Source: Chloroflexota bacterium (GTDB lineage Bacteria > Chloroflexota > Dehalococcoidia > UBA2979). Taken from it: a stretch of DNA of 56,101 bases. Below, piece by piece: positions 26,831-28,342 of this stretch; within the stretch, counting starts at the first letter, position 1; every line of letters starts with the position of its first letter. The translations under genes and the position numbers were made by a program. The notes under the pieces were generated by a model. It saw nothing but the letters and a program-made list of their open reading frames with translations, had not been told where the DNA came from and ran no database searches. The stretch spans positions 1-56,101 of the forward strand of contig CANIRU010000004.1 of the NCBI GenBank assembly GCA_947470025.1. The letters run 5' to 3'.

Positions 26831-27265
26831 CTACTTCTTCTCTCGCTCCCAGAGCGTCTCGTAGCCCTCGCCGCCGCGGATCGCCGCGAGGATGTCGGCA
26901 CGCTCGAGGCGCTGGCCGTCGCGGAACGCAGAGTCGGCGGCGCGCCTCGACGGTTCGCCGCCGATGTCGGCGACGCGGTCTTCGATGAACGACCACACGC
27001 CCAGCTCGCGCATCACCGCGATCGGGCGCGGCCACTGGAAGACGGTGATCTGCTCCGGCGGCGGCACGTCGGGGCGCTCTTTGCGAAGGAAGCGATAGCG
27101 CTCCTCGGCGGAGGTGACCGGCGGGACCATGCTGATGTACGGACGCCCGTCCGCATCGGGACGCGTGTCGACGAGCAGACGCTGCTCGATCATCGCGAAG
27201 CGGACGACGAAGACGTCCGCTTCCGCGATCACGCGCCGCATGGCCTCGATGTCGATGTCCACCAT
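26831..27265 (-). CDS. Hypothetical protein (144 aa)
   Basis: Normal amino-acid composition; fills the gap between ccdA and ltaE; TAGACT 7 nt before ATG. Confidence 0.75.
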   Translation of the reverse strand: MVDIDIEAMRRVIAEADVFVVRFAMIEQRLLVDTRPDADGRPYISMVPPVTSAEERYRFLRKERPDVPPPEQITVFQWPRPIAVMRELGVWSFIEDRVADIGGEPSRRAADSAFRDGQRLERADILAAIRGGEGYETLWEREKK

Positions 27266-27308: not shown

Positions 27309-28097
27309 CTAGCCCACCTGATACGTGCGATCGAGGTAGGGAATGTGGATGAGCCCGGCCATCTGCATCCCGAGCACCATCAGCACGATGCCTCCGGCGC
27401 GCGTCAGCACGTCCCCTTGCCCTGCCAGCAGCTCACCGAGCAGTCCCGCCGAGGCACCCGCGATCGCGAACACGAGGGTGAACCCGACGACGAACGCGAC
27501 CGCGTGGCCCATCACGTGGATCCGACTGCGCCGCGCATCGCCGGTCTGTCCGAGCACCGCCTCGCCAGCGATGTTCACGAGGTAGGCCGGCACCAGCGGC
27601 AACACGCACGGCGAGAGGAACGACACCACGCCGCCGAAGAACGCGACTCCCGGTCCGAACCAGCCGCTGACGCTGCCGCTCAGTTGCTCCTCGGCGGTCG
27701 CCGTGCTCGAAAAGATGAAGCCAAGGCCCTGGAAGTACGCGTTGAGTCGAGTGAACTCGCCGAGGAACATGAGCGCGCCGACGAGGATGAAGAACGCGCC
27801 GCTCGCGATCATCAGCGCGGGGAGGTACGGGTTCAGCCGTCTCATCCTCGGCGAGAGCCAGCCGAAGGCGGCACCAAACGCGAGGAACCAGACGCCGAGG
27901 CCGAGCGAGTAGCACGTGAGCAGGAGCGCACCCTGCAGCGCCTGCCCGGACGCCGCCGCCAGCGTCAGCACGACACCGAGGATCGGCCCGATGCACGGCG
28001 ACCACGCGAGCGAGAACGCCGCGCCAATCACGAACGACCGAGGAAGCCCCTCCGCCACGAGGCGACGTAACCCCCGCGCGGGCGTGGCGCCAGTCAT
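27309..28097 (-). CDS. ccdA: Cytochrome c biogenesis/thiol-disulfide transporter CcdA, halves in reversed order
   Basis: AFSLAWSPCIGPIL occurs first and GVVSFLSPCVLPLVPAY second; ~6 TM helices. Confidence 0.88.
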   Translation of the reverse strand: MTGATPARGLRRLVAEGLPRSFVIGAAFSLAWSPCIGPILGVVLTLAAASGQALQGALLLTCYSLGLGVWFLAFGAAFGWLSPRMRRLNPYLPALMIASGAFFILVGALMFLGEFTRLNAYFQGLGFIFSSTATAEEQLSGSVSGWFGPGVAFFGGVVSFLSPCVLPLVPAYLVNIAGEAVLGQTGDARRSRIHVMGHAVAFVVGFTLVFAIAGASAGLLGELLAGQGDVLTRAGGIVLMVLGMQMAGLIHIPYLDRTYQVG

Positions 28098-28114
28098 CGA
28101 GTGGTCGTCATCGA

Positions 28115-28342
28115 CTACCCGTCGATCCCGAGGAGACGACGGCGGGCGGCGTCGTACTGCTCCTTGGCGCGAGCCTCTCGGTTCAACAGGCCCTTGATCT
28201 GCTCGGGCGGCAGTCGGTTGCCCTCGAGCAGCAGCGAGTGCACGCCGGCCAGGTGCTTCTGCCACTGGTCGTAGGCGTCGCGATACGCCCGCTTCGGATC
28301 GGCGCTCGCGGGAACCTCGGTCGGTTCGGGTTCGTCCACCAT
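28115..28342 (-). CDS. Small helical hypothetical protein (75 aa)
   Basis: Helical-looking composition; TACACT 6 nt before ATG; directly upstream of ccdA. Confidence 0.7.
   Translation of the reverse strand: MVDEPEPTEVPASADPKRAYRDAYDQWQKHLAGVHSLLLEGNRLPPEQIKGLLNREARAKEQYDAARRRLLGIDG

Follow-up and report, generated by a model that had tools for sequence, protein, structure and literature searches.

The closest described relatives of the protein studied here are the canonical CcdA proteins, known from Thermus thermophilus (PDB 5VKV) and also from B. subtilis and R. capsulatus, in which six helices form two three-helix repeats in the order 1-2-3-4-5-6, the first helix of each repeat carries a Pro-Cys motif, and both termini face outward. 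Canonical CcdA is associated with cytochrome c maturation and with thioredoxin-like proteins outside the cytoplasm; Ccm system I depends on a reductant on the outer side of the membrane, which known systems obtain from DsbD or CcdA. Among soluble proteins, natural circular permutations recognizable from the sequence are common; for polytopic helical membrane proteins they have, to our knowledge, very rarely been documented.

E. coli-type DsbD and ScsB have a membrane core homologous to that of CcdA, likewise with two redox cysteines, but comprise eight membrane segments plus periplasmic alpha and gamma domains, as set out in the ScsB class-defining paper (PMC3322552), from which the stem “permut” is absent. 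For the VKOR and DsbB families, PMC4555120 proposes a circular permutation, explained by gene duplication and deletion; the proposal links two distant families by structure alone.

Here we describe a gene, P0001, from the window (the whole 56,101-nucleotide stretch of DNA that was analyzed) of a Dehalococcoidia genome. Its product shares with canonical CcdA the six helices in two three-helix repeats, a similar size, a Pro-Cys motif in the leading helix of either repeat and, judging from gene context, a link to cytochrome c maturation and to thioredoxin-like proteins outside the cytoplasm. It differs in the order of its helices (TM4-5-6-1-2-3 vs. the canonical 1-2-3-4-5-6), in a new outside linker between TM6 and TM1, in the loss of the TM3-TM4 loop, and in termini predicted to be cytoplasmic rather than outside. 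Although its membrane core is homologous to that of DsbD and ScsB, P0001 is unlike them in being only 262 aa long and in having no thioredoxin or DsbD-alpha Pfam match, and the NCBIfam DsbD subfamily model scores it at 34 bits, far under the cut-off of 330. As in the VKOR/DsbB proposal (PMC4555120), we are dealing with a permuted helical membrane thiol oxidoreductase for which duplication and deletion offer an explanation. Here, however, permuted and canonical forms share 35–49% sequence identity within one family, so that the permutation event is readable directly from sequence. In the full-text literature covered (subscription journals lay outside it), we found no description of this half-swap form or of a second permuted CcdA form presented below, and on sequence grounds the half-swap CcdA is a new architecture within a known family.

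Gene structure and chain order

The features of the locus are as follows (positions refer to the window).

27309..28097, minus strand: permuted CcdA gene P0001, 262 aa plus a TAG stop, first in-frame ATG at 28097
27729..28037, minus strand: N-terminal half, residues 21-123, matching canonical CcdA TM4-TM5-TM6 (phmmer, DsbD_2)
27984..28004, minus strand: WSPCIGP, residues 32-38, whose Cys35 (nt 27993-27995) is the redox cysteine of TM4 type, read from the sequence
27648..27728, minus strand: linker between TM6 and TM1, residues 124-150, by comparison with canonical tails and heads
27351..27647, minus strand: C-terminal half, residues 151-249, matching canonical CcdA TM1-TM2-TM3 (phmmer, DsbD_TM)
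27597..27614, minus strand: SPCVLP, residues 162-167, whose Cys164 (nt 27606-27608) is the redox cysteine of TM1 type, read from the sequence
28115..28342, minus strand: upstream ORF of 75 aa, no Pfam family, conserved neighbor within the source organism's family
26831..27265, minus strand: downstream ORF of 144 aa, no Pfam family, conserved neighbor within the same family

The minus-strand open frame spans 28265 to 27309, its longer start being a GTG. Since the GTG reading overlaps the conserved upstream ORF, and since homologues of P0001 are 250–290 aa long, the gene was taken as 27309-28097.

When compared with all PDB chains by phmmer, P0001 matched a single protein, the Thermus CcdA (5vkv_A, E-value 3.2e-24), in two non-collinear pieces: residues 21-123 align to chain positions 113-211 (52.3 bits) and residues 151-249 to chain positions 7-93 (42.6 bits). 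Pfam gives a corresponding picture, with DsbD_TM (PF02683; 58.4 bits, cut-off 27.1) matching residues 151-252 to profile positions 6-103 of 219, and DsbD_2 (31.3 bits, cut-off 24.9) matching residues 14-101 to positions 112-198 of 199, i.e., the end of the profile. These two were the only Pfam models hit at E ≤ 1; no TauE model was among them. The original prediction, which had described this gene as a circularly permuted CcdA and anticipated non-collinear half-matches to canonical CcdA or the DsbD Pfam model, is thus borne out, as is its reading of the motifs: the TM4-type motif (residues 32-38) does lie ahead of the TM1-type motif (residues 162-167), and both cysteines, Cys35 and Cys164, are kept in a single ORF. 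Across 13 permuted sequences the two cysteines are invariant.

We then searched a canonical CcdA profile (87 representatives, 240 positions) with doubled sequences. The doubled P0001 aligned collinearly over positions 9-235 of 240 (246 bits), the alignment path running through residues 150-262 and then 1-125. All six core helices are accounted for by this profile coverage, with which AlphaFold2 (AF2) helices and hydropathy peaks agree. A full-length collinear best alignment to canonical CcdA, the outcome that would speak against a permutation, was absent: only the doubled sequence aligns collinearly, which formally identifies a circular permutation, here with the break between TM3 and TM4. P0001 does not show the standard collinear TM1-to-TM6 order with outside termini; being non-collinear, and with its termini predicted to be cytoplasmic, it was filed as a permuted variant rather than as a standard DsbD_TM member. 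At the level of sequence, P0001 is therefore confirmed as a real, conserved CcdA whose two three-helix halves stand in swapped order.

Distribution among Dehalococcoidia and assembly support

Homologues with the same order, whose existence had been left to a search by the original prediction, proved plentiful. In a 5.8-billion-protein collection, 119 of the 120 best matches to P0001 (64–100% identity, 91–100% coverage) have its motif order, the remaining one carrying a variant motif, and the named records of relatives come from Dehalococcoidia/Chloroflexota. Among the best 150 of 8025 matches (representatives at 50% identity), motif order distinguished 6 full-length half-swap proteins and 10 of the second permuted type from 100 canonical proteins and 34 fragments or motif variants. 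A survey of contigs, which gave at least 601 stretches and covered 80 loci among the matches listed, contained at least one half-swap and at least seven genes of the second type, a sample unfit for frequencies.

To survey the class, P0001 served as query against 301 sampled Dehalococcoidia genomes, and the half-swap form was called from a single collinear match over the full length (query about 3-20 to 257-262). This form was present in 24 genomes: 17 out of 17 in the family of the source organism (f1, its own genome counted among the 17), and seven in three other Dehalococcoidia families (3/3 in f2, 3/3 in f20, and one in f74). The permuted motif order was confirmed in all 18 loci fetched (L088-L105, 19 genes). 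G244, a sampled genome flagged as unpublished, supports none of the claims made here. Within f1, 16 genomes had one match and the remaining one (G069) three, all permuted, while the two-piece pattern of a canonical CcdA was found in 0/17 (P0001 query, E ≤ 1e-5), including the 16 genomes other than that of the source organism, which are 88–97% complete. In one f20 genome (G296), a permuted gene occurs together with a canonical one. The half-swap form appears, from these searches, to have replaced canonical CcdA in f1, a lake-dwelling Dehalococcoidia family, and could serve as a marker trait for several families of the class. In the source genome (2.17 Mb, 80% complete), P0001 is the sole DsbD_TM or DsbD_2 match and is probably the organism's only CcdA, although a canonical copy could sit in the missing 20%.

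Two of the f1 loci are unusual. One genome (L103, G069:C1:559819-570627) holds three permuted CcdA paralogues, two of them ~1.3 kb apart and adjoining a Crp-type regulator and a 323-aa redoxin, an arrangement that resembles a small redox island. Another locus filed in the same family (L105, G224:C29:18768-27481) has 38% G+C vs. 65–70% at the other loci, in a genome of 1.2 Mb, and keeps the permuted gene and its lyase neighbor; it may belong to a streamlined lineage.

The source assembly is fragmented and of metagenome type (152 contigs), so a chimeric or mis-joined contig that placed the second half of a ccdA gene before the first had to be considered. The stretch is contained in 20 public lake or freshwater metagenome runs, 12 of which contain half or more of the sampled words; none is an RNA run, and their content says nothing about expression. 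Four runs were compared as Logan contigs and amount to three independent data sets, X3 being apparently the same data as X2. In each of the three, the linker (27648-27728) and both halves are bridged by a contig (X2, 27200-27837; X10, 27550-28192; X6, 27616-27816) that shows 0 differences and is free of joints and indels, which answers the call of the original prediction for a check against misassembly. Together with the recurrence of the same order in 24 genomes, including the single-contig G092, G069 and G251, and in 119 of the 120 best database matches, this leaves the artefact with virtually no probability: as the source of the permuted order, it is already refuted by the genome survey and the bridging contigs.

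Conservation, topology and probable function

Evolutionarily, an alignment of 13 permuted sequences, down to 34% identity, retains W32, P34, C35, G37 and P38 of the first motif and S162, P163, C164 and P167 of the second as invariant residues, and of the linker residues G148 is invariant and E136 conserved to at least 90%. Between P0001 and its nearest homologue, from the same genus, dN is 0.071 and dS 0.757, a ratio of 0.094; the ratios to more distant relatives (0.32–0.39) are unreliable, since dS no longer rises with distance. By this measure of sequence change, P0001 is under purifying selection.

By hydropathy scan and residue count, lysines and arginines number 4 at the N-terminus and 1 at the C-terminus, and the TM5-TM6 and TM1-TM2 loops have 3 each, as opposed to 0 in the TM4-TM5 loop, 1 in the linker (which also has 2 D/E) and 1 in the TM2-TM3 loop, or 11 vs. 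2 in total. This positive-inside count fits a topology in which both termini are cytoplasmic and the linker lies outside the cell, and agrees with the shift of the chain termini to the opposite side of the membrane that had been predicted along with the permutation.

The AF2 model built on the same 13-sequence alignment is helical throughout, has one helix within the linker (residues 130-141), and scores a pTM of 0.72 at a mean pLDDT of 75.5. A Foldseek search of this model against the PDB gave no match at E ≤ 0.001, a null result that was expected and is uninformative either way when a permuted helical bundle is set against an NMR structure. With VIA-align, 5vkv ranked fourth among 48,161 chains (Z 7.7, rmsd 4.5, 199/224 residues), a Z common for helical bundles; chains ranking above it included RnfA (8ahx_A, Z 8.4) and NqrE (7xk3_E, Z 8.3), whose scores may reflect a shared 3+3 inverted-repeat arrangement, or noise. 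The modeled structure is compatible with the permuted-CcdA reading but does not prove it.

Within the window, the neighbors of P0001 are an FBPase, a DeoC-type aldolase, a beta-eliminating lyase and the two small ORFs without a Pfam family, and no thioredoxin-like gene lies near it. By tblastn, the 75-aa ORF adjoins the permuted gene in 11/11 and the 144-aa ORF is present in 10/11 same-family loci (L088-L098), where they are followed by the beta-eliminating lyase; both are absent from L007. These flanking ORFs are kept within the close family only and contribute no hint on mechanism. Elsewhere in the source genome, contig 21 carries a Ccm system I operon beside COX1, with a CcmG-like redoxin (P0391; membrane anchor and WCIPC), CcmE, CcmF, CcmH, an ABC ATPase and a CcmC-like gene, with CtaA and CtaB next in line; no ResB (system II) turned up in the genome at its 80% completeness. 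The CcmC-like protein (L006 10858-12195, G000 contig 21) is 445 aa long and matches Cytochrom_C_asm over residues 227-382 only, and might have CcmB or some other membrane part fused to it.

Among eight more distant loci examined, a TlpA/ResA-like redoxin gene adjoins the permuted gene in three. It overlaps the 3′ end of the permuted gene in L102 (anchor and WCGPC, P0392) and in L104, where a Thioredoxin_3 gene lies upstream as well, and in L103 one permuted paralogue is divergent to the redoxin gene, near a Crp regulator. The five others (L007, L099, L100, L101, L105) have no thioredoxin-like neighbor.

We consider it highly likely that P0001 is a functional six-helix CcdA-type thiol-disulfide electron transporter, permuted at the boundary of its inverted repeats. 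The chain would run TM4-TM5-TM6, then through an outside linker of ~27 residues into TM1-TM2-TM3, with the fold and the Cys35/Cys164 redox pair kept. Such a rewiring would amount to cutting the cytoplasmic TM3-TM4 loop and joining the old outward termini, so that both new termini come to be cytoplasmic. By analogy with canonical CcdA, a cytoplasmic thioredoxin would reduce the Cys35-Cys164 disulfide, and P0001 would in turn reduce thioredoxin-like proteins anchored on the outer side of the membrane; the likely acceptor in the source organism would be the CcmG-like protein with WCxxC encoded in the Ccm system I operon. The biochemical role is, on the same analogy, most likely the ordinary one of a CcdA, which limits the surprise.

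Two other readings of the gene deserve consideration, the one being that it is a decaying remnant of a tandem ccdA duplication, an ORF still open but non-working while another protein exports the reductant. The source genome is only 80% complete, and P0001 has no redox partner gene beside it in the window; against this stand the dN/dS of 0.094, Cys and Pro motifs invariant down to 34% identity, the fixation of the form in 17/17 f1 genomes with no canonical copy detected, and the presence of a Ccm system I with a CcmG-like protein that needs reductant in a genome with no other DsbD-family gene. Decay is very improbable on this evidence, and P0001 is very probably functional, as far as its sequence conservation tells. 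The other reading, that P0001 is a different transporter of the superfamily, e.g., a TauE/SafE-type anion exporter rather than a thiol-disulfide carrier, could draw on the NCBI names of three relatives (P0074, P0079 and P0096, each a “sulfite exporter TauE/SafE family protein”) and on the RnfA and NqrE chains placed slightly over 5vkv by VIA-align. Both CcdA redox motifs are invariant, however, the only Pfam models at E ≤ 1 are DsbD_TM and DsbD_2, redoxin genes of TlpA/ResA type adjoin the permuted gene in 3/8 distant loci, and the doubled P0001 aligns to almost all of the canonical CcdA profile (246 bits), so that an exporter of this kind is extremely unlikely. The names do call for caution in annotation: domain models split a permuted CcdA in two, and some of its records say TauE/SafE.

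If P0001 is indeed the CcdA-type transporter that we favor, its repeats are reversed, its termini lie (by prediction) across the membrane and its inter-repeat loop has moved from inside to outside, and yet the protein is under purifying selection. It would thus be a naturally available case for asking whether insertion into the membrane, and the alternating-access movement of CcdA, depend on the order of the repeats and on the way loops connect them.

Origin of the half-swap form and a second break point

Compared with canonical proteins (P0125, P0129, P0130), the linker of P0001 consists of a canonical C-terminal tail (LN-YF-Q-FG type), ~15 extra residues, and a canonical N-terminal head (FGP-VAF-GG type) before SFLSPC. 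Because the linker reads as a canonical C-tail followed by a canonical N-head, we infer that the half-swap form most likely arose by duplication, fusion and truncation: a tandem duplication of ccdA would have been followed by an in-frame head-to-tail fusion and by loss of the outer halves.

The alternative would be that ccdA split by fission into two genes of three helices each, which rejoined later in the opposite order. In its favor, the break lies exactly at the repeat boundary, and no 12-helix intermediate was seen among longer proteins (460–2000 aa, best 120 of 228). In those best 120 (460–881 aa), the order was canonical throughout, with both motifs in 119 and the TM1 motif only in one, and most of these listed proteins were fused to redoxin domains. 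Against the fission scenario, among shorter proteins (best 120 of 432) no convincing split or half-size gene family appeared, let alone a populated one, the listed proteins being mostly clusters of 1–2 members on short contigs, typical of fragments. The tail and head standing in series within the linker are what a fusion of two copies is expected to leave, although re-fusion also gives such a series. Fission with re-fusion is in our view unlikely, and duplication followed by fusion and truncation is the origin we retain.

Five proteins with three matched stretches or extra length (P0140, P0141, P0143, P0219 and P0262) had been candidate intermediates and were rejected as canonical, with long loops or N-terminal extensions.

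In trees of re-threaded sequences (92 rows, 237 columns, quick ML search), 10 of the 13 half-swap rows, including P0001, form a main clade (SH-aLRT 80–86), the remaining ones being a P0127 and L007 group, and P0136; this split is weakly supported. A single clade of all 13 was not rejected (delta lnL 42.4, p-AU 0.078), and a single origin of the half-swap form is possible from these trees.

The second permuted type has the order TM2-3-4-5-6, linker, TM1 (“TM1-to-end”), and was found in ten representatives (P0128, P0166, P0170, P0187, P0189, P0195, P0210, P0211, P0247, P0271) and seven genome loci, the loci recorded for it being L008-L011, L044, L045, L086 and L107-L109. By match range (query about 5-180), it occurs in 17/17 genomes of family f23 and 12/12 of family f21 in the class sample. 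Motif order confirmed it in three of the four loci fetched; in the fourth (L106, G245), no ORF with both motifs was found under the patterns used. Like the half-swap, it belongs to the CcdA family and the same class, has the same kind of TM6-to-TM1 linker and, by the same topology reasoning, is predicted to have cytoplasmic termini; unlike the half-swap, it is broken after TM1 rather than between the repeats, and occurs in other families of the class. Its 17 rows are scattered over the tree, and a single clade of them was rejected (delta lnL 184, p-AU 2e-102). Two of them, P0271 and L045, fall within a starred clade of canonical proteins, with which they have a “TNSFLR” tail in common.

It is tempting to speculate that CcdA in Chloroflexota has been circularly permuted repeatedly, with two break points fixed in whole families, the TM1-to-end form having arisen more than once, the half-swap having fully replaced the canonical form in at least one family, and the conserved outside linker (E136, predicted helix 130-141) possibly docking an extracytoplasmic partner. 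Taken jointly, these propositions are tentative and we would sooner doubt than assert them; were they true, the family would offer a natural series for testing the insertion and folding of inverted-repeat membrane proteins with reversed repeats.

On a smaller scale, the P0127/L007 (half-swap) and P0128/L008 (TM1-to-end) groups may, by their sequences, derive from one fused duplicate truncated in two ways. Their linkers are similar (‘..GAEG..TG..FGF.VAF’), and in the tree the two groups are close neighbors.
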